Assembly (NCBI GenBank): GCA_051439605.1 | Contig: JBFRWN010000012.1 | Location: 1-43,950 of the forward strand | From: Synechococcus sp. | GTDB taxonomy: Bacteria; Cyanobacteriota; Cyanobacteriia; Thermostichales; PCC-7336 | DNA length: 43,950 nucleotides | Direction of reading: 5' to 3' | Shown: positions 10,754 through 34,785 of the stretch, piece after piece | Layout: each line of letters opens with the position of its first letter | Numbering within the stretch: the stretch's first letter is position 1 | Program-made: the position numbers and the translations under genes | The notes under the pieces: generated by a model | What the model saw: the letters and a program-made list of their open reading frames with translations, nothing else | Database searches by the model: none | Told to the model about the DNA's origin: nothing

Positions 10754-12262
10754 GTGAAACTGTGGTTTAGTACCTACCCGGTCTGGGTATTAGCGAGTGC
10801 TTTGATGGGGGGGAGTTTCATCTTTGACCAGTCTGTTGCGATGGGCTCTCATGATGAGTCCTCTGCAGGCTCGATACTGGCAACCGAGATACAGGAAACA
10901 GATCTCGAGGCGTCAGCATTTGCCGAACACCAGGTAGACGCTCCGCAACGCCTTCAAGACCGCAATTGGGTCGTCAGCGAACTCCAGACTGAGGCATCCC
11001 CTCTGCAACCGCTCGTAGATTTAGATCTGGCGGAGTCTGTGAATGAAACCGATGCCGAACGTCTTTTACCCGATACCTCCTTCGTATTGCATCTGGATGA
11101 GCCTTTAGCGGGGGATCGCGACAGAGATGAAGACGCAGAGATTGTAGACACCGAAAGGGTAGACATAGAGATTGCAAAGACCGATCTCTCAGACACAGCA
11201 TTCGAACGCGACCTTGTAAATACTGAGGATCGAGAGTTAAACCCTGTTGTTCAGAACCTGCTGAGGGAAATGCAGGGGAAAGAACTTGAGGACGTCGGCA
11301 CTTCTGCTCCCCTCGCTGAGGAACAGCAGGAAGATGGGGACAGCACAGCAAGCGATTTAGACACTATGGAAGCGGATGCTGAAATAGCTGAAGAACAGGG
11401 AGATATTGAGTCTGAAAGCAACGATATCTCCATAGAGGTCGCGACTGAAACCGATGATGCGGAGCCGTTAGAAGCGCCACAAATCGAGCCATTGGATTTG
11501 CCCCCAGGAGGGCAGGACGAGATTGGTCTCAGCTCCGGTGAAACGGCCAAATTAGATCTGAGCCCAGAGGAGTTAGACCCTTCAAATTCATCCTCTACGC
11601 CCTCCCGTACCCTCCTCTACGTGCTGCCAGAAGACGAGTCACTAGAGGAACTGGCAGAGCGATTCAATATTTCACCGCGATCGATTGAGGCGATCAACGA
11701 CCCCGATGACTTGATCGCGATGGAGGCTGGGGACGAGATTAACCTGCCTTGGAATCCCATAGTCCTCAATCACGAAGAATTCTCGACGTCAAACCTCTCG
11801 AACTTGAAGCTGGCCCGTTTGGGTGGCACTCTCGACAACCCCCTATCGGCAACTGGCATGATTTGGCCTGTGGGGGGGGTGTTGACCTCTGGATATGGGT
11901 GGAGAAGAGGCCGAATGCACGCTGGTATCGATATCATTGGGCCCACGGGGACACCGATTGTGGCTGCAATGGATGGTACCGTCATCTACTCTGACTGGTA
12001 CTACGGCTATGGATACATGATTGATATCCAGCATGAGAATGGGATGATGACTCGCTACGCCCATGCCAGCCAGCTCTATGTTTCTCGCGGACAACAGGTA
12101 AAGCAGGGGCAAGTGATTATGGCCATGGGCAGCACTGGGCGCTCAACTGCCCCCCATTTGCACTTTGAGGTGCGGGTTCCAGGCGGTCATGCTACCAATC
12201 CTATTGCCCACTTGAATGGCACCACGCCCCCCCGCAATGTAGCTTTCAACTCAAAACCTTAG
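10754..12262 (+). CDS. LysM + M23 peptidase (NlpD-like) with long acidic N-terminal region
   Basis: DESLEELAERFNISPRSIEAIN (LysM-like); HAGID, TRYAH and APHLHFEV (M23 Zn motifs intact); N-terminal hydrophobic segment. Confidence 0.9.
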   Translation: MKLWFSTYPVWVLASALMGGSFIFDQSVAMGSHDESSAGSILATEIQETDLEASAFAEHQVDAPQRLQDRNWVVSELQTEASPLQPLVDLDLAESVNETDAERLLPDTSFVLHLDEPLAGDRDRDEDAEIVDTERVDIEIAKTDLSDTAFERDLVNTEDRELNPVVQNLLREMQGKELEDVGTSAPLAEEQQEDGDSTASDLDTMEADAEIAEEQGDIESESNDISIEVATETDDAEPLEAPQIEPLDLPPGGQDEIGLSSGETAKLDLSPEELDPSNSSSTPSRTLLYVLPEDESLEELAERFNISPRSIEAINDPDDLIAMEAGDEINLPWNPIVLNHEEFSTSNLSNLKLARLGGTLDNPLSATGMIWPVGGVLTSGYGWRRGRMHAGIDIIGPTGTPIVAAMDGTVIYSDWYYGYGYMIDIQHENGMMTRYAHASQLYVSRGQQVKQGQVIMAMGSTGRSTAPHLHFEVRVPGGHATNPIAHLNGTTPPRNVAFNSKP

Positions 12263-12320: not shown

Positions 12321-12920
12321 TCAGTCGTTCCGAGGTGCATTAGGATCGGTCGCTCGCAATGGATGTCCCTGGCAACCAAAAATATCCGATTCACGATCGC
12401 CCTGCCGGTCCATATCGCTCACGTAACCGCAGTAGGCTTCGGGAAAGGCATCGCAATAGGCCACATAGGGCTTGATATCCAGAATGGGGGTGCGATCGAG
12501 CAAGTCAATCCCTTCAACGTGCAGCGTGTCGCCTTCCACCTTGAGGAGGCGGAGGGCGCTTAATCCAATGGGGTTAGGTCTGTGGGGAGCGCGGGTGGCT
12601 AAGGTTCCGCGTCGCACTTTTGGCCCCCTGGGGGGAATAACGGTGGGGTTCCAATGCTTGTTCAGATGCAGCCAAGAAATGGCCCAGATGCGATCGAATC
12701 CTTCTAGATCTTTGAGGGCAATCGCCGGAACGACATCTTCAAATAATTTGATAGTGGCGATCGCGGGTTGATAGTTATGCGGCTGGCTTCGAAGCTGGGA
12801 TTGGCGGGGGGTGCCGTGGCGTTCGGTGTAGGGGGATCGCACGATGCCAATAGGGGTGAGGCTGACTTGGGAGGGGAAGTCAACAACATTGCTGTAGTCT
12901 TTGGGGGGAAGCTTGGGCAT
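12321..12920 (-). CDS. trmO: tRNA (t6A37) N6-methyltransferase TrmO/TsaA family
   Basis: PIGIVRSPY, LEGFDRIW..WLH, ATRAPHRPNPIGLS and GIDLLDRTPILDIKPY. Confidence 0.9.
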   Translation of the reverse strand: MPKLPPKDYSNVVDFPSQVSLTPIGIVRSPYTERHGTPRQSQLRSQPHNYQPAIATIKLFEDVVPAIALKDLEGFDRIWAISWLHLNKHWNPTVIPPRGPKVRRGTLATRAPHRPNPIGLSALRLLKVEGDTLHVEGIDLLDRTPILDIKPYVAYCDAFPEAYCGYVSDMDRQGDRESDIFGCQGHPLRATDPNAPRND

Positions 12921-13478: not shown

Positions 13479-16400
13479 ATGGATAAGCATATGAAACCAA
13501 AACTACTAAACAGGTTGAGCCTAAAAAGGGATTATTGGTTGATTTGGGCACTACAAGTTGTTTGGTTTTCTAGTTTTTCAGGATTCATTGTTGACGCCTT
13601 AGGAGGCAACATTTATTTAGCTTGTGCCACAGGAATCAGCACCGGCTTCATTTTGCTCAACCTGAAGTGGTCGAAACCTTTTCGAAAATGGTCGATTGTC
13701 ATTTTCTCGTTGATGCTGGGGGCTTCGTTTGCGATTGCCCTGAGTGGATTAATTTCGGGAGTGCAGTATCAACAAGGTGAGGGCCTAGGTTTTGTATGGT
13801 CGATCGATCGCCGCTTGCTTGTATTGGCTGTGTTTGGTTGGTTTGGTGGGGTGATTCACTCTATGGCAGATGGGAGCGTTGATTTACCCACCGCCCGCGT
13901 CGAAGGAGCAGAAGTTCGTCCAGGGATTATTGGGGATGTTTTAGTTGGGGTGTCAGGGGCATTCATTGCCTATGCCTTCATGCCCATGGAATGGAAAGGG
14001 ACCATCTCTAACAGTTTGACTACCTCGGAGCTGCAGCTGCTGGCGCAGCAAATTAGTGCGATTAGTCCTCTATCTTTTTCCGATGTACAAAATGCGCTGG
14101 TGGGATTTCGAATCTCGGATCTGGATGTGCAATCGGTACGAACAGCCCTCACAAGTTTGGCGGCCTCAACTAATGTTCCTGCTGAAGCGATTTCCAACCT
14201 CAACCTAGAACCCATTTTGACGGCGTTTACAGGGGTTCTATCCCCCAACCGCGAGGGGGCCTATCTCAATGCAGCGGTGATCGGCCTGGTAGGGGGATAT
14301 GGCGGCAAGGTCATTATTAAGGAAGCCTTGGGACAGCTACTCAAAAAAGTCCAACAAGGGGAGCTGGAAAACCTCACCGCCGAAAACCAACAGCTGAAGC
14401 AGCAAACCTCTGTCATGCAGGCGGTCAATTCTCAATTGGAGAATGGGTTGACAAGTGAAAAACTCGATCATTTGCGGACAGAGATTTTGGCAGCTTCTAG
14501 AGAGGTGCGAGGACAGATCCTTGGAGCGCTGCCTGCGATCGGAGGGCTGTCGGTCCGGGGCCGTATCGTTCGCGGACGACTCAGCCGATCGATTCCAATT
14601 TTGCAGGCATTGGTGGCGGCAGAGCCGAAAAACGATCGCTATTTAGGGCAATTGGGTTTTGCCTATTTAGAAGCCTCTTCTCCCAATTTGAGTCAAGCGA
14701 TTGTCACCCTTACCAATGCCATTGCTGCGAGGGGAGAGTCCATTGAGGGGAGTCGATGGAAGTACGAGCTGTTCCGCGCGATCGCTCGGATTCAACTCGG
14801 TAGCTCCGACAGCAGATCCCTCAGCGACGAGCAAAATCGACAGGCCATTTATGAAGATCTCATGGTCGTAGAACGTCAATATGGTCTCTCCCGCCTGTTT
14901 GACGATGCGGCAGATGAAGAAGTCGATATGCCTTTGACCGCCTGGTTGCAGATGGAAAAACCCTGGCTGCAAACGCAACCGGACGGCAAGCTGTTGCTGG
15001 CTGTATTAGATAGAACAGCAGCTACTCCATCCCCAGACTCTTCAGCCATAGGTTCTACTCCGCAAGAAACTGCCCCGCAAGCAATCGCCACTGCAAAGCC
15101 ACAATCCGCATCTACTCCATTCCCTTCAACCGCAGCTCCTGCCACACCTGCCCCCTCTGACAAGTTAACGTCGAACCCTTGGGATGAAGCCCTGAAGGAG
15201 GCCCCCACCACTGGAGCCTCTGCACTTACTGCTCGTCAGGATGGACTACAGGGAGGGCTGGAAGCCTCTCGGCAGATGGCCAAAACGGACTTGCCTGCAG
15301 TCTTGCAATATAAAGACCAGTTCGAGCGGACAGGTGCCAAATTCGACATTCCTCCAGCGCTATTGGCAGCGATCGCCAGTCGCGAATCCCGGGGGGGCAA
15401 GGCCCTACGGCAGGGGTTTGGAGATGGGGGGAACGCCTTTGGAATTATGCAGGTGGACAAGCGGTTCCATAAATTGGCGGGTGTCAGCGAGGGGCCTGGG
15501 AGCTTAGCCCACATCGACCAAGCCACCGGCATTTTGAAAGATTACCTCAATCAAGTGATTACAAAATTCTCCCATTGGGAGAAGAAATTCCAGTTAGAGG
15601 GGGCGGTAGTCGCCTACAACTCTGGGGTGAGAAACGTGCAAAGCCAATCGAGGCTGAATATCGGCACCACTGGCGGCGACTATGGGTCCGATGTGATTGC
15701 GAGAGCATGGTTCTATACCAATTCGTTTAAGAGCTTGGCGGAATGTAGGGCAGGAACTATCCATCAACAGGCAAAGGCTGCCCCCGCCGATCTCGATACG
15801 ATCGCCACAGCCTTGCAAGAGGTCGATGATACCGTTTCGGTGGATGACTTGACCGAAGCAATGGTAAAAGCCTTAGAAAATGCTTTGACGGCATTGGGAT
15901 TTATGCAGCCAGGGGGCGATCGTTCTCAACTTCCATCAGCTTGGGGGGCGTTTAAACAAAGCGTTAATCAGGGGTCTCCGGAATTGCTTGGCCCCGGCAG
16001 TATCCGACTGTTGCTGGATGCGTTGGGATTGCCCCATCCGGTGGCAGACGAGCAGCAGGGGGACGCTTCCGCCACAGTGAATCAAAGGGCGGGTTTGCGA
16101 ACTGGGAAATCGAAGCAGCTGCCGGGAGGCCAGCTGGTGTTCGAGAACGAAAACATCGTGCCGGGGATTCAGCTTACATGGGGTGAATGCACGAAGGGAA
16201 TGGCAGACGAGCGCTGGCCTACCAAGGTAGAGGAGGTGGTCAATGCTAAGCGATTGGCGAAAGCCTTTGGTGAAGTGCGCACCCGCTACGGCAAACCACT
16301 ACGGATTAATTCTGGGTTTAGACCCCCGGCGGTCAATGCCCGAGTAGGGGGAGCCAGCCGCAGTCAGCATTTGTATTTCAAGGCGTTAGATATTGCGCCA

Positions 16401-16547
16401 GTGGGGGCAAATTTCCCGGGGGACTTGTTACTGGTGTTGGATGCGGTGCGGCGATCTCCCAGTGTGACGGGGATTGGCTTGGGGCAAAAGCGTGGGTTTA
16501 TTCATATGGATATTCGTGATGGGGGGCGGATTGAGTTTCCTTATTAG
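13479..16547 (+). CDS. Multidomain membrane protein: multi-TM region + coiled coil/TPR-like + goose-type (GH23) lysozyme + PG-binding-like + peptidase M15A
   Basis: TTGAS…AAIASRES…GD…FGIMQVDKR…AYNSG…GTTGGDYGSDVIARA (g-type lysozyme, ~15200-15720). INSGFRPPAVNARVGGASRSQH…ALDI…FIHMD (M15_3, ~16140-16547). The ORF is open from 13347; ATG 13479 or 13491 is more likely. Confidence 0.88.
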   Translation: MDKHMKPKLLNRLSLKRDYWLIWALQVVWFSSFSGFIVDALGGNIYLACATGISTGFILLNLKWSKPFRKWSIVIFSLMLGASFAIALSGLISGVQYQQGEGLGFVWSIDRRLLVLAVFGWFGGVIHSMADGSVDLPTARVEGAEVRPGIIGDVLVGVSGAFIAYAFMPMEWKGTISNSLTTSELQLLAQQISAISPLSFSDVQNALVGFRISDLDVQSVRTALTSLAASTNVPAEAISNLNLEPILTAFTGVLSPNREGAYLNAAVIGLVGGYGGKVIIKEALGQLLKKVQQGELENLTAENQQLKQQTSVMQAVNSQLENGLTSEKLDHLRTEILAASREVRGQILGALPAIGGLSVRGRIVRGRLSRSIPILQALVAAEPKNDRYLGQLGFAYLEASSPNLSQAIVTLTNAIAARGESIEGSRWKYELFRAIARIQLGSSDSRSLSDEQNRQAIYEDLMVVERQYGLSRLFDDAADEEVDMPLTAWLQMEKPWLQTQPDGKLLLAVLDRTAATPSPDSSAIGSTPQETAPQAIATAKPQSASTPFPSTAAPATPAPSDKLTSNPWDEALKEAPTTGASALTARQDGLQGGLEASRQMAKTDLPAVLQYKDQFERTGAKFDIPPALLAAIASRESRGGKALRQGFGDGGNAFGIMQVDKRFHKLAGVSEGPGSLAHIDQATGILKDYLNQVITKFSHWEKKFQLEGAVVAYNSGVRNVQSQSRLNIGTTGGDYGSDVIARAWFYTNSFKSLAECRAGTIHQQAKAAPADLDTIATALQEVDDTVSVDDLTEAMVKALENALTALGFMQPGGDRSQLPSAWGAFKQSVNQGSPELLGPGSIRLLLDALGLPHPVADEQQGDASATVNQRAGLRTGKSKQLPGGQLVFENENIVPGIQLTWGECTKGMADERWPTKVEEVVNAKRLAKAFGEVRTRYGKPLRINSGFRPPAVNARVGGASRSQHLYFKALDIAPVGANFPGDLLLVLDAVRRSPSVTGIGLGQKRGFIHMDIRDGGRIEFPY

Positions 16548-16737
16548 CTGTGCTGAAAGTTGTTGAGTGTTTGCGAGGGGACGGAGGGTTGAGGCTAGTG
16601 CTTGGGAGACTCTGCGGAGGGGGCTGATATGCTGCGTAAGATTTCGATTTCCTTAGAGAGTTGACGTAAGTGTGAAGGGGGCCGCTAGTATCTCGGGTAG
16701 TCTTACTCACATTCCTGTTGGTCAACGAGTCTGTTGC

Positions 16738-18057
16738 ATGAAAAAAGCCTACGTTCTTGATACCAACGTGCTGCTGCACGATCCTCTCTCCCTGCATCAA
16801 TTTCAAGAGAACGATATTGTTTTGCCCATCACGATTGTTGAGGAGCTGGATCGGTTCAAGAAACAGGCGTCAAATATTGGCCGCAATGCCCGACTGGTTT
16901 CGCGGATTTTGGATGAGATGCGGGCTAAGGGGCATCTGATTGAAGGGATCGATCTAGGGCGGGGGGGGCAGCTGCGGGTGGCGCTGTCGAATCCCGACAT
17001 TCTGAAATCGCTGCCGCCGGAGCTGGAGGGAGATAAGGACGATAATGCGATTTTGGCAGTTGCCCTCGATTTGAAGGCGGCCTGTCAATGTCCGGTGGTG
17101 TTAGTCAGTAAAGACACCAACCTGCGCATTAAGGCGGATGCGCTGGGGTTGGATGCAGAGGATTACGAGACCGACAAGGTCGATGTGGACGAGCTGTATG
17201 CCGGCACCAACGAGATCTCTGTCGATGCCAACGTTATCAATGCGTTGTATTTGGAAGGGAAAACAACGTTACCCAACCACTATCCCGCAAACCAAGCGTT
17301 GACGCTGGTAGATAGCAGCAATCCCTCCCACACGGCGTTGGCGATCGCCACAGGCAACGGTTGCGCGACACGACTGGATGCAATGGGAACTTCGGTGTCG
17401 CGGATTCGGCCTCGCAATCGGGAGCAGAAGCTAGCCTTTGAATTATTGCTGCGTCCGGCCATCCAGCTAGTAACCCTAGTCGGTAAAGCAGGGACGGGGA
17501 AGACGTTGTTGGCGATCGCGGCAGGATTGCATCAGGTGGCGGACAACAAGGAATACACTCGCTTGCTGATTGCGCGGCCGGTGGTGCCGATGGGGAGTGA
17601 CATTGGGTATTTGCCAGGGGACATAACGGAGAAATTAGCCCCCTGGATGCAGCCGCTATACGACAATTTTGATTTGATCTTTGGCACTCAAGATAGCGTT
17701 GACAAGCCAGGGCATTGGAAGCACGGCCACGAAGAGTTGACGGAGCGAGGACTCTTGCAGATCGAGCCCCTGACGTATATTCGCGGGCGCACGATCCCGA
17801 AGCAGTATTTGATTGTGGATGAAGCGCAGAATTTGACGCCGCACGAGGTGAAGACGATTTTGACGCGGGCAGGGGAGGGCACCAAGATCGTGCTGACGGG
17901 GGACCTAGAGCAGATTGACAACCCCTATGTGGATGCAGCCAGTAACGGTCTGACCTACGTGATTGAGAAGTTTCGCGAGGAGCCGCTGGCGGGCCACATT
18001 TTGCTGAAGAAAGGAGAGCGATCCGAGTTGGCAGAGCGGGCAGCGGTGTTGTTGTGA
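16738..18057 (+). CDS. PIN-PhoH (PhoH2-type) protein
   Basis: N-terminal PIN (YVLDTNVLL, DNAIL, LVSKDTNLRIKA); Walker A GKAGTGKT, IRGRT and DEAQN. Confidence 0.93.
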   Translation: MKKAYVLDTNVLLHDPLSLHQFQENDIVLPITIVEELDRFKKQASNIGRNARLVSRILDEMRAKGHLIEGIDLGRGGQLRVALSNPDILKSLPPELEGDKDDNAILAVALDLKAACQCPVVLVSKDTNLRIKADALGLDAEDYETDKVDVDELYAGTNEISVDANVINALYLEGKTTLPNHYPANQALTLVDSSNPSHTALAIATGNGCATRLDAMGTSVSRIRPRNREQKLAFELLLRPAIQLVTLVGKAGTGKTLLAIAAGLHQVADNKEYTRLLIARPVVPMGSDIGYLPGDITEKLAPWMQPLYDNFDLIFGTQDSVDKPGHWKHGHEELTERGLLQIEPLTYIRGRTIPKQYLIVDEAQNLTPHEVKTILTRAGEGTKIVLTGDLEQIDNPYVDAASNGLTYVIEKFREEPLAGHILLKKGERSELAERAAVLL

Positions 18058-18212: not shown

Positions 18213-19403
18213 TCATTGACGCTCACCTATTTCCGCCAGGCGATAGGCTGCTCCTAAACCAGCAGCAATTTCCTCCGCTGAAATCTTGCCATCGCTGTTA
18301 ACGTCTAAGGCGTCAAACACTGCATCGGTCCCCGCCCACTCTTCGCGGGTGACGAATCCATCCCCGTCTAGGTCGTAAACCTGGAAAACCTCCTGCGCTG
18401 CACCGCTGACTGCCTCTTCGCCGTTAAGGAGGCCTAACCGTTCGGTCAGCAAATTTTCCAGGGCTTCTAGGGCTTTGGAAAAGCCTTTAATCCCCTCAGC
18501 CAATTTCTCAGAGGCCATCCGATTGCTCGCATGCATTTTCTCGAAGGTGAATTTGTCCACTGATATCTGTTCGATATCTAACTGTTGGGCGATCGCAGGA
18601 TCAAGCTTTCTGGGTAATTCAGCCGTCGTCGAACGTAATTCATCCAGTAGCTTGGGGGAAATGGTCAGCAGGTCGCACCCTGCCAACTCGCAAATCTCGC
18701 CAATGTTCCTGAAACTGGCCCCCATAACCTCAGTTTGGTAGCCGAACTTCTTGTAATAGTTATAGATTTTGGTGACGGACAGCACGCCGGGGTCTTCCGC
18801 GGGCGGATAGCTATCTCGTCCGGTGTCTTTCTTGTACCAGTCGAGAATTCGACCCACAAAAGGAGAGATCAGCGTGACACCAGCTTCAGCACAGGCCACT
18901 GCTTGGTGGAAGCCGAATAATAGAGTCAAGTTGCAGTGAATGCCTTCTTTCTCTAAGACTTTAGCAGCGCAAATCCCCTCCCATGTGGAGGCAATTTTAA
19001 TCAAAATGCGATCGCGAGAAATCCCGGCTCTTTCGTATTCTGAAATCAGATAGCGAGCTTTGGCAATGGTGGCGTCGGTGTCGTAGGATAGCCGCGCATC
19101 CACCTCAGTGGACACTCGTCCCGGTACGATTTCTAGAATTTTTTTGCCAAAGGAAATCGCCAGGCGATCGAAGGCCAGGGAGACGATATCGGCTTCGCTT
19201 GCTCCCGCTCCGGCATCGTTCTTGGCCTGCCGCAGCGTATCGGCCACAATTTCTCGATACTCCGGCATTTGTGCCGCTGCCGTAATCAGAGAGGGATTCG
19301 TGGTGGCGTCGCGAGGGGTAAATTGCTCGATCGCTTGAATGTCACCTGTATCGGCAACAACGACGGTTACATCTTTTAGATAATCTAGTAAGCTTTTCGA
19401 CAT
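18213..19403 (-). CDS. tal: Transaldolase with C-terminal EF-hand pair
   Basis: [34 protein letters not shown] hands [12 protein letters not shown] and [18 protein letters not shown] before ATG 19403. Confidence 0.96.
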
Positions 19404-19486
19404 GGTTGACTCCAAATTGATAGATTCAGTGGCTTAAAGTCAGCTTTGTTTTGATTGCGATTACCTAACCCCAGAGCAAAGTTCCT

Positions 19487-20059
19487 TTAGGGACAGCCCA
19501 ACACTTGAATGGTGTAAGTATCTTGAACCGTTCCGGGACCACCGATCTTCAGATTGACCTCGTAAGGTTGGGTGCCCTCGCGGGGTTCTCCGGAAAATGC
19601 GTGTAAGTGTTGCTCAGACATGGGGAATTTATCTTCTTCGTGAACTAGATCGGCAGTCCCGTCTTCATATTTGAGATACATGTCGATATCGTAATTACCG
19701 ATATCTTGAGACAGCACTGAGGCGTAATAGCGCGAAAAAGTTGCTTCTTCAGGAACCTCAAAATCAGTATTCCAATTGGGGCCAAACCAAATCAGATATA
19801 GGTTTGGCACCCGACCGGGGGAGGCGGTTTTCGTCACTTCTGTCCCTTCACCGCCTATCACGGGCAAAGGTGTGCAACCCTGCGGTATGGGCTCCCCAGT
19901 CTCCACGGCAGGTAAACCCTGCTCTACTCGGATGCAGCGGCTATTGAGAGGGAACTCGCTGCATAAGGTATCCAACGAGACTTTAATGTTCGAGCGCGCT
20001 GGGATAGCGACCGCACATATCGCTGCTGCAGCTAGTAACGCAGTGTTAATGATTTTCAT
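19487..20059 (-). CDS. Hypothetical secreted protein
   Basis: SD AAGGAG before ATG 20059; signal peptide; CSEFPLNSRC motif followed by a beta-rich domain (NWNTDF…MYLKY…QPYEVNLKIG). Confidence 0.75.
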   Translation of the reverse strand: MKIINTALLAAAAICAVAIPARSNIKVSLDTLCSEFPLNSRCIRVEQGLPAVETGEPIPQGCTPLPVIGGEGTEVTKTASPGRVPNLYLIWFGPNWNTDFEVPEEATFSRYYASVLSQDIGNYDIDMYLKYEDGTADLVHEEDKFPMSEQHLHAFSGEPREGTQPYEVNLKIGGPGTVQDTYTIQVLGCP

Positions 20060-20191
20060 CAGGTCACTCCTTGAAAAGAACAGTTGCATCTTCGCCCCCG
20101 ACGAAAATTGCCTTGCTGCGATCGTAAACATTGCAACTCATTGGAGATGAGTCGAGTGCAGGCAAAAGTCCTCGGGAGCAGGCAGTCTCGG

Positions 20192-21517
<1,326 letters not shown>

Positions 21518-21538
21518 TCAGATTTTGATTGAGGACAG

Positions 21539-21576
21539 AGATTAACGAGACAGATTAACGAGACAGATTAACGAGA
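21539..21576. repeat. 13-bp tandem repeat (AGATTAACGAGAC) x ~3 overlapping the ackA stop
   Basis: agattaacgagac agattaacgagac agattaacgaga read directly from the sequence. Confidence 0.9.
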
Positions 21577-22802
21577 TTGCCGGACTGTAATTGCCAGCAG
21601 GCTTGCGCGATCGCCCAATCCTCCTCCGTACGCACGACCAACACCCGCACCGCCGAATCGGTAGTAGCGATATCTCGATCCACTGGAAAAGAACTGTTTT
21701 TCTCCCCATCCAGCTGCAAACCTAAAAACTCGAATCCCGTGCAAGCTTTCTCGCGCACGACCGCTGAATTTTCACCGATCCCGGCGGTAAACACAATCGC
21801 ATCCAAGCCCCCTAGGCTGGCCACCATTGACCCGATGGAGGCTCGCAGGCGATGGATAAACATGTCGAAGGCCAATTTGGCCCGTTCGCTGCCTCGGCCG
21901 ATCCCCTCCAACACTGTCCGCAAATCAGCAGAAATCCCCGATACACCTTTAAGGCCGGATTCTTTGTTGAGCAGGGTGTCTAGGCGATCGACGTCAAAAC
22001 CATACTCCCGCATTAGATGGATTGGGATCGCCGGATCGATGGAGCCGCTGCGGGTGCCCATCATCAACCCCTCCAGCGGGGTAAATCCCATTGTGGTGTC
22101 GATACTGTGGCCGTTGCGGACAGCGGCTAGGGAACAGCCGTTGCCCAAATGGCAGGTCACGAGTTTGAGGGTTTCTAAGGGCTTACCCAGTAGGTCGGCG
22201 GCTCGGTGGGCGCAAAATTGATGGCTGATGCCATGGAAGCCGTAGCGACGGATGCCTTTTTCGTACCATTCGTAGGGGAGGGGATAGACGGCTGCCTCTG
22301 GTGGCATGTGACTGTGGAAGGCGGTGTCGAAGACTGCCATCTGGGTAACGTCCCCCAATGCCTGCTCAATCGCTTTGATGCCGGACAAGTTCGCGGGATT
22401 GTGGGCGGGGGCCAAGACGGTAAGGCGGGAGATGGCCGCTTTCACGTCCTCTGTAACAGGAGTTGCTTCTGAATAGTCCGCTCCGCCGTGCACCACTCGA
22501 TGGCCAACCAAATCGATTTCCGACAGCTGGTGCAGCACTCGGGTTTCCCCTGACACCAGGGTGTCCAGCAGCAGGGGGATAGCACGATCGCGATTCCCAT
22601 CCGTCAGCTCCACTTTGAGAACCGCTCCGTTGGCTTTCACGTTCATAACGCCACCAGCGGCCGCCACAGTCCAATCGATATGGGCTTCCCACACTGGTAG
22701 GGGCGGGGAAGGAGGCAAACCGTCAGCGGATAGCTCGTACAAGCAGCTTTTTTGGCTGCTGGAGCCTGCATTGAGCACCAGTATCTTCATAGAGACAGCC
22801 AC
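21555..22802 (-). CDS. ackA: Acetate kinase
   Basis: LVLNAGSSS, GHRVVHGG, APAHN, RRYGFHG, HLGNG and FTAGIGEN; alternative ATG at 22790. Confidence 0.97.
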   Translation of the reverse strand: MAVSMKILVLNAGSSSQKSCLYELSADGLPPSPPLPVWEAHIDWTVAAAGGVMNVKANGAVLKVELTDGNRDRAIPLLLDTLVSGETRVLHQLSEIDLVGHRVVHGGADYSEATPVTEDVKAAISRLTVLAPAHNPANLSGIKAIEQALGDVTQMAVFDTAFHSHMPPEAAVYPLPYEWYEKGIRRYGFHGISHQFCAHRAADLLGKPLETLKLVTCHLGNGCSLAAVRNGHSIDTTMGFTPLEGLMMGTRSGSIDPAIPIHLMREYGFDVDRLDTLLNKESGLKGVSGISADLRTVLEGIGRGSERAKLAFDMFIHRLRASIGSMVASLGGLDAIVFTAGIGENSAVVREKACTGFEFLGLQLDGEKNSSFPVDRDIATTDSAVRVLVVRTEEDWAIAQACWQLQSGNLVNLSR

Positions 22803-22832
22803 TGTACCCCCTGTAGCAAGCAGGATTGAGGT

Positions 22833-23138
22833 CTAGGTATCGGCACGATTGTCGGGCCCAAATTCGTCGATCATGGCGTCTGTGTGCAGGACGGTATCTG
22901 CGATTGAGAGGGAATGGCTGAGGACGCGAAAGTAGTTGATTTTTTCATTCACCTTGCTGAGCTTCTCTTTTAAGCCGCTTTCATCCTCTCCCTCACTCAT
23001 CTCCTCCAGCTGACTGAGGAGGCGACCGCGAATGGTGGCGTAATGGGACTGAGCATTTTTGAAGCGGTTGTGCAGTTCGGTCACCGCAGAGATGACCGAG
23101 AGATCGCCGATGGTCGCATTCGCTTTGCTATTGGTCAT
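22833..23138 (-). CDS. Hypothetical 101-aa helical protein
   Basis: ATG-start ORF filling the gap between co-oriented genes; coiled-coil-like composition. Confidence 0.7.
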   Translation of the reverse strand: MTNSKANATIGDLSVISAVTELHNRFKNAQSHYATIRGRLLSQLEEMSEGEDESGLKEKLSKVNEKINYFRVLSHSLSIADTVLHTDAMIDEFGPDNRADT

Positions 23139-23204
23139 GGTGAATTTCGCTAGAGTTTCGTATTCTTCGGGATAATAACAGTTCCTTCGATCGGGTCATA
23201 AAGC

Positions 23205-23849
23205 TTACGTGCATGGCAACGCCTGCAATTGACTGTCTAAATGGGAGCGATCGGCTATGGAGTGGAACAGCGGTCCTCGGTTGGCGAGTTCCACGACGCT
23301 GAGGGCGGCGGTGGGCATGTCCATGCGATCGCGGTAGCGACCGACATCGATTCCGGCTAAGGAGCAGAGCATGATGCGGATGGTGGCTTTGTGGGAGACC
23401 ACCAACACGCAGCCGTCAGCGTAAGCTTGCTCGATCTCCTCCAGCACGAGGGCGGACCGGCGGGCGATATCGACGGCTCGCTCGCCGCCCGTTGGACCGT
23501 TCCAAGCGGGGTCCGTGAGCCAGCGGACGTAGTCGTCGTGAAATTCGCGATTGACTACTGTGGGATGCTTGCCCTCCCACTGGCCGTAGGACACTTCTTT
23601 CAGTCCATCGCGAGGTTGAACCTCCAAGCCAGTAGCCTGACTCAAGGGGGTGGCCGTCTGGCGCGCCCGGAGCAAGGGACTGGAGAAGATGGCTTTCCAA
23701 GGGATGGAGCGATAAGCGTTTGCGAATGCTTCGGCCATGCGCATGCCATCGGACGTCAGACCGGGATCGGACTCGGGGGTACCGCAAAAGCCCCCCGTGC
23801 GGCTGTAGGCGGTTTGTCCGTGGCGAAGGAAGTACAGCATCAAACTCAT
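23205..23849 (-). CDS. Histidine phosphatase (PGM-like) family protein, copy B
   Basis: YFLRHGQT, SSPLLRA, E..YGQWEG and VVSHKATIR; ATG at 23849, 2 bp after the paralog's stop. Confidence 0.92.
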   Translation of the reverse strand: MSLMLYFLRHGQTAYSRTGGFCGTPESDPGLTSDGMRMAEAFANAYRSIPWKAIFSSPLLRARQTATPLSQATGLEVQPRDGLKEVSYGQWEGKHPTVVNREFHDDYVRWLTDPAWNGPTGGERAVDIARRSALVLEEIEQAYADGCVLVVSHKATIRIMLCSLAGIDVGRYRDRMDMPTAALSVVELANRGPLFHSIADRSHLDSQLQALPCT

Positions 23850-23851
23850 GG

Positions 23852-24490
23852 CTAAGTCCCGGCTCGCTGACGCAGGCGATCGCTCAGATGGGAGCGGTCC
23901 CCCAAGAAATGCAAGAAGGGACCGTGCTCCCGAAACTCCACCACGCTGACCGCGGCCACCGGCATATTGATGCGATCGCGATATCGCCCCACATCGATGC
24001 CAGCCAAAGAGCACAGCATGATACGAATGGTGGCTTTGTGGGATACCACCAGGACGTTGCCACTGTCGTAGGTTTGCTCGATTTCCTCCAGCACCAGGGC
24101 GCTGCGGCGTGCAATGTCCACTCCCTTTTCCCCGCCAGTGGGGGAATTCCAGCCGGGGTCAGCCAGCCAGCGCACGTACTCGTCGTGATATTTGTCATTT
24201 ACCTCCTCTGGAGTCATGCCCTCCCACTGGCCGTAAGTAATTTCCTTCAGGCCATCCCGCAACTGAATATCGATCCCCAGCCCATCGCACAGGGGTTTGG
24301 CTGTATGGATGGCCCGTTGAAGGGGGCTGCTATAGACCGCCGTCCAGGGCAAGGCATGGTAAGCCTTAGCAAACTCCTCTGCCATTTCGTAGCCGGACTC
24401 GGTTAAATCCAGGTCGAGACTACCGCAGTAGCCCCCAGCTTGGCTGGAGGTAGTTTCCCCGTGGCGCAGAAAATAGAGTTTTAAACTCAT
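23852..24490 (-). CDS. Histidine phosphatase (PGM-like) family protein, copy A
   Basis: YFLRHGET, SSPLQRA, EITYGQWEG and VVSHKATIR. Confidence 0.93.
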   Translation of the reverse strand: MSLKLYFLRHGETTSSQAGGYCGSLDLDLTESGYEMAEEFAKAYHALPWTAVYSSPLQRAIHTAKPLCDGLGIDIQLRDGLKEITYGQWEGMTPEEVNDKYHDEYVRWLADPGWNSPTGGEKGVDIARRSALVLEEIEQTYDSGNVLVVSHKATIRIMLCSLAGIDVGRYRDRINMPVAAVSVVEFREHGPFLHFLGDRSHLSDRLRQRAGT

Positions 24491-24511
24491 TGAATCAACG
24501 TAGAGAAGTTT

Positions 24512-26098
24512 TCAAAGTAGAGAAATTTTCAAGCTGGAGGGCTGGCCGCGATCGCCGCTCACCACAACACCCCGATCGTTTGCCGCTAAATGCCGCACAA
24601 TTTTGTAAACCGCTTCCACGCGATCGGGGGCTCCTGCTTTGGAGGCTAAAGTGGCCAAGTCTAGAGGCGAGCCGGTCGATTTCAGAATCGCCATCACTTG
24701 CGTTTGCAATTTCAGCACCGAAGCTGCCGCCTTCTTCCCGGCTTCCACCCCCGGCTGGTGGTAGGCGTTGATGTTCACTAGAGATGCATAGAACCCCACC
24801 GCCCGCTCGTACAGGGCAATCAAAGCCCCCACAGTGCGGGGATCGACTTGGGGAATGGTCACCGTAATCGAATCCCGCTCGTTTTCGTACAGTGCCTGTC
24901 GAGTCCCCTGCAGGAATCCCGATAGATAATCTCCAGTGGTGACCCCCGGTTCCACTTCCACCGAAGGGCCGGAGCGATCCTGCAGCACCTCGATAAAGGT
25001 GGCAAAGAAATTCGGTACTCCTTCCCGCAGTTGTTGGACGTAGGCGTGTTGGTCGGTGGAACCTTTGTTGCCGTATACGGCAATCCCCTGATGAACGGTG
25101 TTGCCATTGAGGTCTGTTTCTTTCCCCAAAGACTCCATAATCAGCTGCTGCAGGTAGCGGCTGAACAGCAACAGGCTGTCTTTGTAGGGCAGAACCACCA
25201 TATCTTTCTTGCCCTGGCCGTCACCGGAGGCATACCAGCAGAGGGCCAGTAAGGCGGCAGGATTGGTGCGGATGTCTTTGATGCGAGTGGCAGCATCCAT
25301 TTCCTTAGCCCCTGCCAGCAGTTCGCGGATGTCAATGCCTTGCAGTGAAGCAGGCAGTAGGCCGACGGCCGACAATTCCGAGGTACGTCCCCCCACCCAG
25401 TCGTACATGGGAAACTCTGCTAGCCAGCCTTCGGCTCTGGCCAGCGCATCCATTTTGCTGCCCTCCATCGTGGTGGCGACGGCGTGGCGGGCAAAGCTCA
25501 AACCCATTTCCTCGTAGACTTGCTTGACCTCCAACATCCCGTTGCGGGGTTCGGGAGTGCCGCCGGACTTGCTGGTGTCGAGGATCAGGGTACTGTTGAG
25601 GCGATCTTTCAATCCGCTGAGGACGCGATCGATGCCAGCTGGATCGGTGTTATCGATGAAGTGAATCGCCAGAGGAGGATCGTTTGGAGCAAGGGCAGAG
25701 GCAACAAACTGGGGACCCAGAGCCGATCCACCAATGCCGATCGCCAGCAAGTCGGTAAACTTCGGCGCCTCGGGGGGGTGGATTGCTCCACTGCGAACCT
25801 TTTGAGTAAAGTCTTCGATATGGTCGATCGCTTCGCTAATTGCCTGACTAAGTTCTGGGCTGGGAGCTAATTCGGGAGTGCGCAGCCAGTAGTGACCCAC
25901 CATGCGATTTTCATCGGAGTTAGCGATCGCTCCCCTCTCCAGAGCCTCCATATCCAGAAAAGCCTTGTCGAATTTGGGCTTCATGCTGGCCAGTAACCGA
26001 TCGTCAAACCGCATTCGGCTGACATCTAGATACAGGTCCAAGCCTTCGTGATAGTAAAGCCAATCTTGATAGCGTTGCCAAAGGGTCGCTGCGTCCAT
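24512..26098 (-). CDS. pgi: Glucose-6-phosphate isomerase (cyanobacterial type)
   Basis: [38 protein letters not shown] and [12 protein letters not shown]. Confidence 0.97.
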
Positions 26099-26226
26099 GG
26101 GTCAACTCCAAATCTTGAGCGGTGGCCGAAGCAAATGTCTTGAAAAACCATCGAACAAACAAGCGCGGGGAATTGTTTCCCACTGTGAGGAACTCATTTT
26201 GAGAATCCTAAATACCAAGAAACTTT

Positions 26227-26247
26227 GGGGCATGTCGGTCATGCCCC
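26227..26247 (-). terminator. Perfect 8-bp hairpin just downstream of xfp (mRNA-stabilising stem or weak terminator)
   Basis: GGGGCATG-tcggt-CATGCCCC, 13 bp after the xfp stop; no clear U-tract. Confidence 0.5.
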
Positions 26248-26260
26248 TGCAGCGATCGCC

Positions 26261-28708
26261 TTAATAAGGCCACTTCCACTCGCGGATTTCGGGTTTATCG
26301 ATCCCGTAGGTGAAGGCGTATTGGGTGTTTTCGATGATGGCGTTCTTCATGCGCTCTTTGACGTAAGCCGCCCGAGAGCCCAATGAGGGGACACGATCGA
26401 TGACGTCAATCACGAGATTGAAGCGATCGATTTGGTTTTCCATCGCTAGCTCCAGCGGAGTATTGATGTTGCCTTTTTCCTTGTAGCCGCGCACGTGAAT
26501 CCGATCTTGATTCGTTCGGCGATACACCAGCTTGTGAATCAACCAAGGATAGCCGTGGAAGTTAAAGATAATAGGCTTATCGGGAGTAAACAGCGTGTCG
26601 AAGTCTCGGTTTGACAGGCCGTGAGGATGTTCTTTCTCGTCCACCAGCGTGGCTAAATCGACCACGTTGATAAAGCGAACTTTCAGATTGGGGAACTCCT
26701 CCCGCAGAGTGGCCGTTGCCGCCAAAGATTCCATCGTCGGAATATCGCCGCAGCAGGCCATCACCACATCCGGTTCGTCGGGGGCAGTGCCGCAATCGTC
26801 GTTGCTGGCCCATTCCCAAATGCCCAGGCCCTTGGTGCAATGGGCGATCGCCTCGTCCATCGTCAAGTACTGCAGGTGCATCTGCTTGTCGGAGACGATG
26901 ACGTTAACGTAATCGGTGCTCTTCAAGCAGTGATTTGCCACCGATAGCAGGCAGTTGGCATCCGGTGGGAAATATACCCGCACCACATCGGGGCTCTTGT
27001 TGGTGACGAGGTCGATGTAACCGGGATCTTGGTGGCTGAAGCCGTTGTGATCCTGCCGCCATACCAGCGAAGACAGCAAAATGTTCAGGGAGGAAATCGG
27101 AGCTCGCCAGGGGACTTCGTTCTTGCAAATATCCAGCCACTTGGCGTGCTGGTTGAACATCGAGTCCACCACGTGGGCGAAAGCTTCATAAGTATGGAAG
27201 AAGCCGTGACGACCAGACATCAGGTAGCCTTCCAACCACCCCTGTAGGGTGTGCTCGCTCAGCATCTCCATCACCCGACCGTCTGGTGACATCTGGCTGC
27301 CGTCTTCATCTTCGGGCAGGTAGTCTGCCATCCAAGCCTTTTTGGAAACTTCGTAGACGGCTTGCAACCGGTTAGAAGCAGTTTCATCCGGGCCAAACAG
27401 GCGGAAGTTATCGGTGTTCAGCCGCATCACTTCACGCAGTAGGTAGCCCAGCACCTTGGTATTTTCAAACTCCACAGTTCCAGGCTTGGGAACGTCAATC
27501 GCCAGTTCTCGGAAATCCGGCATGCAAAGCGCTTTGCGAATCTTTCCACCATTCGCGACAGGATTGTCGCTCATACGGCGATGTCCCTTGGGAGCCAGCT
27601 CCTTCAGTTCCGGCAGCAGCGTGCCGTTCTCGTCGAACAGCTCCTCCGGCTTGTAGCTCTTCATCCATTGCTCTAGCAGCGTTAAGTGCTGGGGATTATC
27701 GTGCATCCCCCCCATCGGCACTTGGTGGGCTCGCCAGAAGCCTTCGACCTTATGGCCGTCCACCTCTTTGGGGCCGGTCCAACCCTTCGGGGTCCGCAGA
27801 ATAATCATCGGCCAGCGAGGACGCTTGGCTACGCCACTGCTGCGGGCATCGGCTTGGATGGAGCGGATGAGATGGATGCATTCATCCATCGTGGCGGCCA
27901 TCGTCTGGTGCATTTCTTCGGGGTCGTCCCCTTCCACAACGTAGGGGGTGTAGCCGTAACCCCGGAATAGGCTTTCCAATTCTTCTCGCGAAATTCTGGC
28001 CAGCAGGGTGGGGTTGGCAATTTTATAGCCGTTCAGGTTCAAAATCGGCAGCACAGCCCCGTCGCGAATGGGGTTGAGATATTTGTTGGAATGCCAAGCC
28101 GTCGCCAAGGGACCGGTTTCGGCTTCCCCATCCCCCACCACAGCCGTCACAATCAGGTCGGGATTGTCGTAGGCAGCTCCATAGGCATGGGAAATGCTGT
28201 AGCCGAGTTCGCCGCCCTCGTGGATGGAGCCGGGTAGCTCGGGGGTACAGTGACTGCCGATCCCTCCGGGGAAAGAAAACCACTTGAAGAGGTTGAGCAT
28301 GCCCTCTTCATCTTCGCCCTTATCAGGATAGACCTCTGAATAGGTGCCCTCTAGATAAACGGGACCGATCACGCCCGGTGCGCCGTGGCCGGGGCCAGCC
28401 ATATAGATGGCATCCAGGTCGTGCTTCTTAATCAGCCGATTCATGTGGATGTAGATGAAGCTGAGGGCTGGCGACGATCCCCAATGTCCCAACAATCGCT
28501 GTTTGATCTGATCTTCCTTGAGGGGCTCTTTCAGTAGCGGGTTGTCCTTTAGGTAGATCATGCCTGCCGCCAAGTAGTTGCACGCCCGCCAGTAAGCGTG
28601 CATCTTTCGCAGTTCTTCTGCACCCAGCGGTGTACCTTGAACTGTCGAGCCCACTTGCCCTTCTCCACCGACACCTCTTACGGAGGGCTTTTCTGGAGTT
28701 GATACCAT
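26261..28708 (-). CDS. xfp: Phosphoketolase (XFP family)
   Basis: [26 protein letters not shown]…NGYKI (TPP motif), FGPDETASN and [18 protein letters not shown]. Confidence 0.97.
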
Positions 28709-28839
28709 AACGTTCTCCTAATTTTGCATTACTGGACTGCGTAAACCCCTTTATAAAGAGTAAAAAAAGACGCTCGAACTAAAACGATTTAATAGCAAGT
28801 AGCTCTAGTGACATAATCCGAACAACTAACTGAACATCC

Positions 28840-29075
28840 TATAAGAAATGACAGCGATCGCCAGTAAATCTAATGATTTTCTTATATCTTTAAAATTGAG
28901 AATCTCACTGTACTTGAAACTGAAATTCACCATCATTCTAGAAGTAAAACTCAATGTATGAGTTTTTAGAGGACATTAATGTCAAGTTCCTTGAACTTTG
29001 CCAATTGTATAGAGGAATTCTTCCTTGAGATCGGGCTGGCATGAGTCTCTCTATCGTCTGTTTTGTGACACAAAA
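28840..29075. promoter_or_regulatory. AT-rich xfp upstream region with clustered palindromes (candidate operators)
   Basis: AAAACTCA-N5-TGAGTTTT 28946-28966; GACATTAATGTC 28972-28983; AAGTTC-N3-GAACTT 28984-28998; TTTTGTG-A-CACAAAA 29061-29075. Confidence 0.45.
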
Positions 29076-29261
29076 TACATGACAAAGGGGAAGATACCGT
29101 GACAGGCATTATTTTGCACAAATAGAATAGAGTTCCACAATGCATTATTCTTCAAGACGTATCGATCTCCATTTCAATCCATTAATGGTTGAGCATTTTG
29201 ATACTGATTTTATCTACATAGTTGTCATTCCTACCCATCCCCCTTCATTGGCATAAGAGGT

Positions 29262-30299
<1,038 letters not shown>

Positions 30300-30390
30300 T
30301 CAAATGTCAATGAATGTCTGGGCGTGCCACGGGCATGGGGAATGGATGCGAGAGTTGTCCTACTTGCAGGTATGGCAACTGCCAGCTGGA

Positions 30391-31401
30391 TTAAGCAGGA
30401 ACCTGCGGCCTGTAAGCGACTTCGTTCTTGAGGGGGACACCCCGTTCGAACGCAGAGATGTTAGAGAGCGTGGTGACCGCAATATTTTGCAGGGCATTGC
30501 GGGTAAAGAACCCCTGATGAGCGGTGATGACCACGTTAGGGAAAGATTGAAGAAGCTGAATGGCATCGTCCTGAATGATGGTGTCGGACAAATCTTCGAA
30601 AAAGAGATTTTCCTCGTCTTCGTAAACGTCAATGCCGAAATAGCCGATAACTCCGGATTTGATAGCATCGATCGCCGCCTTGGTATCGATCAACGCCCCT
30701 CGACTGGTGTTAATCAGCATTGCCCCCGGTTTCAGTTCCTCTAGAGTATCGGCATTAATTAAGTGGTGGGTTTCCGGAGTGAGGGGACAGTGCAGCGAGA
30801 CGATATCTGACTCCGCAAGTAATTCCGGCAAGCTGACGTATCGTCCCCCCATCTCTGCAATCGCTGGATTTTCAAACGGGTCGTAGGCCAGCAAGTGGCA
30901 GCCGAAACCGTGCATGATGCGGGCAAAACACACCCCGATCTTGCCGGTGCCCACAACACCAACCGTGGTTCCGAATAGGTCAAAGCCTAGCAATCCCTCT
31001 AGAGAGAAGTTGTCGTCGCGGACGCGATTGTAGGCTCGATTCAGCTTGCGATTCAGCATCAAAATCAGGCCGACGGCATGTTCGGCCACTGCATAGGGTG
31101 AATAGGCCGGTACCCGCACCACCGATAGCCCCAGTTTCGCCGCCACCTTCAGATCGACGTGGTTGAATCCTGCCGATCGCAAAGCAATTAGTTGGGTACC
31201 GCCAGCAGCAAGTACCTCCAGGGCATCGGCATCGAGGGTATCGTTAATGAACGCGCAGATTGCGGGAAATCCCTTGGCCAAAGGAGCGGTGACAGCAGTC
31301 AAGCGAGGCTCGAAAAAAACCAGCTCGTGTTCGCCATCCCGATTGGCCGCCTGCAATGATTCTCGGTCGTATCTCTTGCTGCTAAAAACTGCGATTTTCA
31401 C
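30391..31401 (-). CDS. ldhA: D-lactate dehydrogenase (D-2-hydroxyacid dehydrogenase)
   Basis: LRSAGFNHVD, RVPAYSPYAVAEH, GTGKIG, INTSRG, DVYE.E and TAHQGFFT. GTG 31401 has SD GAGGTG; alternative ATG at 31422. Confidence 0.92.
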   Translation of the reverse strand: MKIAVFSSKRYDRESLQAANRDGEHELVFFEPRLTAVTAPLAKGFPAICAFINDTLDADALEVLAAGGTQLIALRSAGFNHVDLKVAAKLGLSVVRVPAYSPYAVAEHAVGLILMLNRKLNRAYNRVRDDNFSLEGLLGFDLFGTTVGVVGTGKIGVCFARIMHGFGCHLLAYDPFENPAIAEMGGRYVSLPELLAESDIVSLHCPLTPETHHLINADTLEELKPGAMLINTSRGALIDTKAAIDAIKSGVIGYFGIDVYEDEENLFFEDLSDTIIQDDAIQLLQSFPNVVITAHQGFFTRNALQNIAVTTLSNISAFERGVPLKNEVAYRPQVPA

Positions 31402-31441
31402 GATCTCACCTCTTGAATGCATCTCCTTTTGAGCGAACCAG

Positions 31442-33979: not shown

Positions 33980-34086
33980 GGTCGGGTCCTCTTGTCAATC
34001 AGCTTGAATGTCGAAGTAGTGATGTCAGGAACGAGGTTCGGGGGGCGAGGTAAATCAGGCGTTAAACTCTTGAGGTTGAACCGGCT

Positions 34087-34785
34087 TCAATCATCCAAAA
34101 CAACTTTGTCGGTCACGGTTCCCTGCGAGTCAATGTCGTAAACGATCGGCACCCCCGTCTTTAACTCCAGTTTGGGAACCTCCTCTGGACTCAAGCGGTC
34201 CAGCTCCATGATGATGGAGCGCAAAGAATTGCCGTGGGCCGAAACCAACACGTCATCCCCTTGCTTGAGGTGGCTCATGATGCGATCGCGAAAAAACGGC
34301 ACCGCCCGCTTTAGGGTGTCCTCCAAACTCTCCCCTCCAGGGGGCCGCACCGAGAAAGACCGCCGCCATTCGTGCACCTGCTCGTCCCCAAATTTCTCAG
34401 CAGTTTCGGCTTTATCCAGTCCCTGTAAATCGCCGTAATACCGCTCGTCCAACGCTGCACTGGGATAGATTGGCAACTCTTCAGAGCAAACTCCTTCGTA
34501 GCGATCCCATCCGTGCCAGTTGGGATCGTTTTTGCCATGCTTGATCACCGGGATTTTGCCATTACAAATCTCGTCAACTTCAGTCAAACAAATCACCGCC
34601 GTTTCCATCGCCCGCATCAGCATGCTGGTAAAGCAAACATCTACTCGATAATCCCTCAGCTTGCAGGAGGCGATCGTTGCTTCCGCCCTCCCCCTTTCGC
34701 TCAGCGGTACGTCAACCCAACCCGTGAACTTATTGACTGCATTCCAAAGGCTCTGACCGTGTCGAATTAATATCAACTTTGCCAT
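34087..34785 (-). CDS. gpmA: 2,3-BPG-dependent phosphoglycerate mutase
   Basis: RHGQSLWN..NKFTGWVD, ERYYGDLQG, WRRS and AHGNSLR. Confidence 0.93.
   Translation of the reverse strand: MAKLILIRHGQSLWNAVNKFTGWVDVPLSERGRAEATIASCKLRDYRVDVCFTSMLMRAMETAVICLTEVDEICNGKIPVIKHGKNDPNWHGWDRYEGVCSEELPIYPSAALDERYYGDLQGLDKAETAEKFGDEQVHEWRRSFSVRPPGGESLEDTLKRAVPFFRDRIMSHLKQGDDVLVSAHGNSLRSIIMELDRLSPEEVPKLELKTGVPIVYDIDSQGTVTDKVVLDD

Follow-up and report, generated by a model that had tools for sequence, protein, structure and literature searches.

A membrane-anchored lysozyme and peptidase on one chain in Synechococcus sp.: one state of a cyanobacterial scaffold family with swappable cargo and a candidate self-lysis effector

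Why should a cyanobacterial chromosome encode, amid housekeeping genes, a membrane protein that ends in two enzymes predicted to attack peptidoglycan? The question is raised by a stretch of 43,950 nucleotides from Synechococcus sp. (contig JBFRWN010000012.1 of assembly GCA_051439605.1, positions 1 to 43,950; hereafter the window), in which a single open frame on the forward strand, 13479-16547, encodes P0001, a protein of 1022 aa. The gene is single-copy in the host genome (4.9 Mb, 99.98% complete), and its GC content, 0.53, is native to that genome. P0001 is interpreted here, with confidence that is about evenly balanced, as a latent effector that is encoded by the host and lyses its own cell as part of a defence or cell-death programme. 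The overall architecture that had been read from the sequence alone, comprising transmembrane (TM) helices, a coil, TPR-like helices, a linker, a lysozyme and a peptidase, is borne out, and its parts are arranged as follows.

13479..16547, forward strand: whole P0001 gene, 1022 aa
13536..13667, forward strand: two extra N-terminal hydrophobic helices (residues 20-63), found in same-genus relatives too, of low model confidence
13695..14318, forward strand: core module of four TM helices, YLATT/DUF4257-like (A, residues 73-91; B, 111-130; C, 150-168; D, 258-280, with an invariant GGY)
13986..14249, forward strand: helical insert of 88 aa in the C-D loop, predicted to lie outside the membrane
14304..14444, forward strand: long helix or coiled coil extending helix D (residues 276-322)
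14496..15023, forward strand: TPR-like helical domain (residues 340-515), absent from two same-genus versions
15024..15188, forward strand: linker rich in Ala, Pro, Thr and Ser
15198..15719, forward strand: GH23 g-type lysozyme, with E636 (15384), D649 (15423) and D660 (15456)
15774..16034, forward strand: divergent PG_binding_1-like three-helix segment, weakly supported
16164..16544, forward strand: M15A zinc peptidase, with H964 (16368), D971 (16389) and H1009 (16503)

By sequence comparison, the lysozyme is assigned to the g-type group and the peptidase to M15A. Residues 574-747 of P0001, which include no cysteine, align end to end with six g-type lysozymes in the PDB (E 8e-46 to 3e-37), the solved matches including those of salmon (3MGW, E 8e-46), swan, goose and cod. 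Pfam places SLT at residues 616-725; the domain nevertheless scores 160 bits against 3MGW vs 35 bits against Pfam SLT, which marks it as a true g-type lysozyme and not, as the sequence-only reading had named as its own refutation, an ordinary bacterial SLT. In goose lysozyme the catalytic Glu is accompanied by a pair of Asp residues that lytic transglycosylases lack. The catalytic Glu (codon at 15384) and both Asp had been claimed to be intact in P0001, and E636 is indeed accompanied by Asp649 (of GD) and Asp660 (of QVD) at goose-like spacing; the three residues are kept in 267, 233 and 259, respectively, of 267 lysozyme homologues. The catalytic zinc ligands of M15A peptidases have the form H-x6-D...H, and those of P0001, H964-x6-D971 and H1009, align to the zinc site of 1LBU, in agreement with the claim that they are intact. 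Peptidase_M15_3 (PF08291) is matched at residues 896-1011 with E 6e-20 (71.8 bits vs a cut-off of 23.2), while the best PHROG matches of the domain are phage endolysins (E 7e-20). The PG-binding-like segment proposed between the two enzymes receives weak support from a profile-profile comparison (P 0.0009, probability 23%). Taken at the level of sequence, these data support the proposal of a single-chain enzyme for both the glycan and the peptide of peptidoglycan.

P0001 represents one of several states of a scaffold whose cargo can be swapped. Its first 510 residues retrieved five relatives with four different C-terminal cargos, and a profile of the TM core retrieved 235 proteins, of which the 120 relatives listed were analysed; those that bear an organism name are all cyanobacterial, mostly from Microcystis. 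Full length was taken as at least 690 aa, which 104 of the 120 reach, the 16 shorter ones, mostly fragments, being set aside, and cargo was labelled with probes cut out of Pfam-labelled relatives. Each of the 104 carries cargo, which is a muramidase (g-type, GH19 or GH24) in 94, accompanied by a peptidase in 76 of these, and MACPF-jacalin in 10. The hydrolase combinations comprise GH19 with M15 (45), g-lysozyme with M15 (12), GH19 with C39 (12), g-lysozyme alone (8), GH24 alone (8) and others (9); the architecture of P0001 thus recurs, with g-lysozyme and M15 present together in 13 of the 104. Cargo that seems always to be wall- or membrane-destroying counts in favour of a lysis effector.

On a tree of 62 scaffolds the glycan-cutter/MACPF label changes 17 times vs a minimum of 4, and cargo differs even between the close scaffolds P0003 and P0005, while all MACPF copies fall in a single clade, whose sister is the hydrolase clade with their partners. 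The placement of all g-lysozyme scaffolds in one clade was rejected by the approximately unbiased (AU) test (p-AU 0.0004) on a 44-row subset, whose manner of collection favoured g-lysozyme members and in which P0001 sits on a long branch. Versions without the TPR-like domain are found at unrelated loci of two congeners, as TM helices with g-lysozyme and M15 in G402 and with GH24 and C39 in G401. No characterised protein with this architecture was found in the literature, as had been supposed, nor was any published description of the scaffold-cargo family, although supplements, e.g. those of the Aravind group, and the YLATT-defining paper could list it. One family gene (L044:2416-7149) is split by an IS200/IS605-like two-gene element, as judged by eye from the translations.

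The membrane part was modelled with AlphaFold over residues 1-516 (76-sequence alignment, mean pLDDT 80.7, pTM 0.51, residues 1-50 poor), a full-length model having been set aside for its mean pLDDT of 44 (6-sequence alignment). Hydropathy and the model agree on about six TM helices, rather than the six to seven initially counted, four of them common to the family and two N-terminal ones shared with same-genus relatives. The coiled coil and TPR-like helices of the sequence-only reading are retained in the model; fold-search rows for the latter mainly represent TPR proteins (Z up to 11.8, rmsd 3.2 over 152 residues), although values of Z 9-12 are modest for helical repeats and Foldseek gave no match at E <0.001 for this domain. 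The 88-aa insert is modelled at a pLDDT of ~80 in a loop with a family median of 6 aa, and shorter, similar-looking inserts occur in the relatives L036 and L044; it may possibly act as a sensor outside the membrane.

Sequence profiles suggest that the membrane module is YLATT/DUF4257-like, though not a member of either family by cut-off. DUF4257 (PF14074) matches 7 of 14 TM-core rows (best E 1e-6), one relative exceeding the cut-off (28.9 vs 27 bits), and YLATT (PF20303) matches 3 of the 14 weakly (best E 0.055). YLATT is precomputed on 5 of the 120 relatives listed, and the best Atlas cluster for the TM core is YLATT-marked (0.91), the family being found on 14% of that cluster. P0001, with its core interrupted by the 88-aa insert, falls below both Pfam cut-offs; no YLATT match exceeded the cut-off in 251 phylum genomes, and no solved structure matched the TM core by sequence, the fold search having barely covered the TM part. 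YLATT was reportedly defined by Burroughs and Aravind in 2020 and is said to be a predicted pore-type conflict effector domain. A role of DUF4257 as a holin was considered and rejected, as its sole viral homologue does not lie beside an endolysin. That homologue (L055:5725-6309), a distant relative of the TM core with a GYGG motif, is preceded by an integrase-like gene on its viral contig.

The distribution of Lys and Arg (K/R) around the core helices bears on the side of the membrane on which the cargo is held. The mean counts are 3.2 before helix A, 1.0 in loop A-B, 2.2 in loop B-C, 0.5 in loop C-D and 3.6 after helix D, a bias that favours an N-in/C-in orientation in all 61 members that could be parsed, out of 63. 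In the model, helix D continues into the coil with a one-residue break at GGYGG and no hairpin. The charge bias and the AlphaFold model together predict cytoplasm-facing hydrolases, and the C-terminus of P0001 is probably cytoplasmic. The TM topology prediction suggested at the outset thus places the enzymes on the cytoplasmic side, with a reservation concerning the weak hydrophobicity of helix D that is weighed below.

The neighbours of relatives were compared at 30 loci (L036-L051 and L056-L069, with L006 and L007 excluded as duplicates; several are short, and L067 lacks an open reading frame (ORF)). Conflict-type genes recur as neighbours, which counts for a lysis effector. At 11 of the 30 loci the gene immediately upstream, in the same orientation, is an SPFH/Band-7 gene, with gaps of 23-94 bases at ten and 272 at one; the encoded protein has a long coiled coil (e.g. 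L038:3198-4892), and L040 has no such gene at the corresponding site. At 5 of the 30 the gene immediately before a hydrolase copy bears MACPF (gaps of 19-70 bases in the four measured), giving a tandem of a MACPF and jacalin gene followed by a wall-hydrolase copy (L047:6992-12733, L061, L062, L064 and L068); L064 and L068 show only the MACPF part of the upstream gene because it is cut by the contig end. Where complete, the tandem MACPF-jacalin genes have the same TM-TPR scaffold. The L047 tandem is flanked by two KAP NTPases with QatA/PifA-like PADLOC matches, and those of L061, L062 and L068 by caspase, CHAT, lipase-like or nSTAND-WD40 genes. Across the 30 loci, caspase, CHAT or nSTAND-WD40 genes flank four and KAP NTPases two. 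As judged from gene content, the MACPF-hydrolase tandems are a candidate for a fuller system than the lone P0001 gene. A 350-aa protein without Pfam annotation, which shows a weak C2-like structural resemblance in the Atlas, adjoins the family gene, in either orientation, at 6-7 of the 30 loci (L042:3703-4758, L045:9503-11674, L046:9668-10756, L038, L057, L060 and L063). Nine of the 30 loci, plus L067, lack any recurrent partner. At L063:3057-8896, two tandem hydrolase paralogues, one M74-like with a PF11860 muramidase and the other g-lysozyme-bearing, stand behind an SPFH gene.

The scaffold family appears to be rare, patchy and mobile. Searches with the single protein and with a profile detected the scaffold in 3 of the 401 phylum genomes sampled, the host included. 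The g-lysozyme is present in 4 of 401. Within the window, the P0001 gene is flanked by housekeeping genes, the nearest of which mark the site.

12321..12920, reverse strand: flanking trmO-like gene, a site marker outside the module
16672..18057, forward strand: flanking PIN-PhoH gene, outside the module, adjoining trmO in G401 and G403

In the congeners G401 and G403, trmO and phoH are adjacent, with gaps of 390 and 325 bases and nothing between them. The P0001 gene may have been gained in the host or lost in these two genomes.

Since the predicted orientation of the enzymes is towards the cytoplasm, P0001 is likely to be a stored self-lysis device. The protein would be anchored N-in through its four-helix core, with the lysozyme and the zinc peptidase at a predicted cytoplasmic C-terminus. 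No immunity protein would be needed, since cytoplasmic enzymes cannot reach the wall. Infection or membrane damage, perhaps sensed via the TM/TPR part, may serve as the trigger, upon which the inner membrane would be breached by the TM module itself or, where present, by a MACPF paralogue. The lysozyme and peptidase, linker-tethered or released, would then jointly cut glycan strands and stem peptides, and the cell would burst as with a one-gene holin-endolysin cassette. Among the roles initially proposed (lysis, abortive infection or antagonism), conflict or lysis appears to be the likeliest, with lytic activity and phage defence both putative.

A number of observations weigh against such a role, for which activity, location and phenotype are all putative. 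Helix D is weakly hydrophobic (mean 0.64 vs 1.5-2.1 for A-C), and the K/R excess past it is modest (3.5 vs 2.4 per 20 residues); should helix D not cross the membrane, the enzymes would face outward. The holin likeness of the TM core is negligible, with a holin PHROG matched in 1 of 14 rows (E 0.037), and an extracellular target would suit the jacalin lectin of the MACPF copies better than would self-killing from within. No PADLOC 2.0 family matched P0001, P0005 or P0172. The 30 loci are not independent, as they come from related genomes, several of Microcystis and of Crocosphaera, L061 is nearly a copy of L062, and some contigs are short. The P0001 gene itself is without any recurrent neighbour, and the host genome yielded no match to the SPFH, KAP, MACPF, C2-like or LCAT probes, so that P0001 would work alone or be an orphan. 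The host genome does have CHAT and nSTAND genes, located away from the P0001 gene.

The same data may be read in other ways, of which a stored weapon against other bacteria, be they competitors, algicidal or predatory, is doubtful but deserves consideration. Such a weapon would be released on membrane fragments, in vesicles or upon attack, and, with comparable doubt, hydrolase and MACPF-lectin copies may be supposed to cooperate like animal lysozyme and perforin. The rapid swapping of cargo is typical of arms races, MACPF-jacalin copies are paired with hydrolase copies, and g-type lysozymes act against bacteria in animals and have been suggested to serve predation in myxobacteria, according to PMC11576321. 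With cytoplasmic storage, immunity would be unnecessary here as well; however, no conserved adjacent immunity-like gene was seen among ORFs of at least 110 aa in the 30 loci or beside the P0001 gene, and no secretion marker in the 30 loci, an anchor of 4-6 TM helices is ill-suited to export, Gram-negative targets shield their wall, and the caspase, STAND and KAP neighbours suggest intracellular death pathways. A tentative synthesis would join the two directions of attack in a cyanobacterial perforin-plus-lysozyme arsenal, in which one membrane/TPR scaffold arms either a MACPF-lectin pore or a swappable hydrolase pair at the inner membrane face and, when fired by caspase/STAND signalling, bursts the infected cell or the attacker.

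An autolysin tethered to the membrane and facing outward, for the remodelling of the host's own wall during growth, separation or turnover, is unlikely, even though a glycosidase, a peptidase and a PG-binding segment together are usual for an autolysin, the gene is a solitary one of native GC amid housekeeping genes, and helix D may fail to cross the membrane. The scaffold occurs in 3 of the 401 phylum genomes, the syntenic site is empty in two congeners, cargo is swapped between close scaffolds, MACPF cargo has no wall-remodelling role and the K/R bias is contrary. A receptor-like sensor, in which the wall-enzyme domains would detect or release peptidoglycan fragments at a phage breach and the TM module would be the pore effector, is also improbable, although the pore-type effector role predicted for YLATT would suit it. 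Type-II membrane proteins with external PG-binding or -processing sensor domains are predicted in ParA-linked immune systems, according to bioRxiv 10.64898/2026.10.19.760177, but the domains would have to face outward, contrary to the charge bias, and two intact catalytic sites together with the MACPF cargo of relatives are effector-like. A stored self-lysis effector remains the favoured explanation of P0001.

The site itself provides few signs of how the gene arrived or is controlled. Flanking repeats around it do not exceed chance, and no DNA similarity between congeners was found across the intergenic junctions. A recent mobile insertion was rejected on these grounds and on the native GC. 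A prophage or plasmid origin was likewise rejected, as the scaffold matched nothing in 50,697 phage or 72,556 plasmid records, nor did the g-lysozyme in GenBank phages. Upstream of the gene there is no match to a sigma-70 promoter or terminator, and one NtcA-like palindrome (consensus from general knowledge) occurs at approximately chance level. An M23 peptidase gene at 10754-12262 of the window, 1.2 kb upstream of the P0001 gene, is unlinked to the module, since it is also present at the empty site in G401 and G403. Further downstream, window 18213-36295 holds an unusual co-oriented cluster of glycolytic and fermentation genes (Pfam), for transaldolase, enolase, acetate kinase, PGI, phosphoketolase, GAPDH, D-2-hydroxyacid dehydrogenase, glycogen phosphorylase and pyruvate kinase.

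The lysozyme domain appears to derive from a large prokaryotic g-type pool, in which its nearest relatives belong to other cyanobacteria. Its homologues comprise 1003 representative proteins at E <=0.001 and 178 at E <1e-30, the identified members among the 178 including cyanobacterial, proteobacterial and viral ones. Among the 149 homologues listed, 14 bear the scaffold, partly or wholly, and many others are fused to PG-binding, SH3, LysM, M23, CHAP, amidase or C39 domains (94 of the 149 scanned). Short homologues include those of Trichocoleus (62%), one deltaproteobacterium, one alphaproteobacterium and chordates (45-51%). The initial description of the domain as animal-like holds for its motifs, but not for its nearest kin, which are cyanobacterial (identity up to 65% vs ~50% for fish). 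Three viral contigs bear a g-lysozyme, which in the one inspected (L077:4971-5537) stands alone amid tail genes and is followed by a 112-aa hydrophobic ORF, resembling an endolysin-holin pair.

A phylogeny with metazoan LysG, called for in the sequence-only reading, was obtained from trees of 127 and 48 rows, which are unrooted and without labelled invertebrate or myxobacterial rows. Chordates, Choanoeca flexa and one further row form a supported clade without P0001 (97 and 99/92, the latter clade holding 11 chordates, one choanoflagellate and one further row), and the nearest rows to P0001 are scaffold family members and the Trichocoleus protein. The AU test did not reject the placement of the P0001 lysozyme with animals (p 0.37). 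A recent animal-to-cyanobacterium transfer is not favoured by these comparisons. The two-domain g-type lysozyme P0047, from a Choanoeca flexa transcriptome, groups with chordates and could be contamination; choanoflagellates are reported, in part of PMC11576321, to be without the g-type family. The transfer of myxobacterial g-type lysozymes is discussed with opposite directions in parts of PMC11576321 and PMC12855814, where myxobacteria are the only bacterial holders named and the string 'cyanobacteri' is absent from the main texts.

The pool of 178 representative proteins (E <1e-30) could change the transfer direction inferred for animal g-type lysozyme, and the arsenal, if confirmed, would form part of a prokaryotic g-type reservoir that bears on its origin. 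The arsenal would also be a phage-independent, host-encoded lysis machine and a candidate cell-death executor in bloom-forming Microcystis. In the P0001 family, cyanobacteria, among them Microcystis, have a candidate for lysis in defence that lends itself to direct testing, and the poorly understood YLATT/DUF4257 membrane domains would gain a cargo with a simple assay.

To our knowledge, no programmed-lysis executor of this design is known, and its likeness to described systems is partial in each case. By analogy, P0001 may be likened to a one-gene holin-endolysin cassette without being a member of that class: like phage holin-endolysin cassettes and modular endolysins it combines a membrane module with wall hydrolases and predicted cytoplasmic storage, but it is one polypeptide, chromosomal and without phage genes nearby. 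With the three-TM domains YLATT (PF20303) and DUF4257 (PF14074) the P0001 family appears to have in common a Gly-rich three-helix core, whereas its partners are fused wall hydrolases or MACPF instead of pYEATS. The full-length lysozyme domain, with its Glu and both Asp, is shared with GH23 g-type lysozymes (salmon 3MGW, goose 153L and myxobacterial), although, in contrast to the free enzymes, it sits in a 1022-aa membrane protein and is devoid of cysteine. The H-x6-D...H zinc site is shared with the M15A Zn D-Ala-D-Ala carboxypeptidase (1LBU) and with MepK-type endopeptidases, P0001 falling far below the cut-off of the MepK L,D-endopeptidase NF053624 (14.8 vs 185 bits). The nearest described idea appears to be that of EAD1 conflict systems, in which lysozyme and papain-like peptidases that attack the wall are predicted to serve as effectors (Kaur et al. 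2020, PMC7159879). Those effectors, which are predicted only, are recruited via EAD1, mostly in alphaproteobacteria, and have no multi-TM/TPR scaffold, but they too, as in the P0001 family, are wall-attacking enzymes deployed as variable effectors of conflict.

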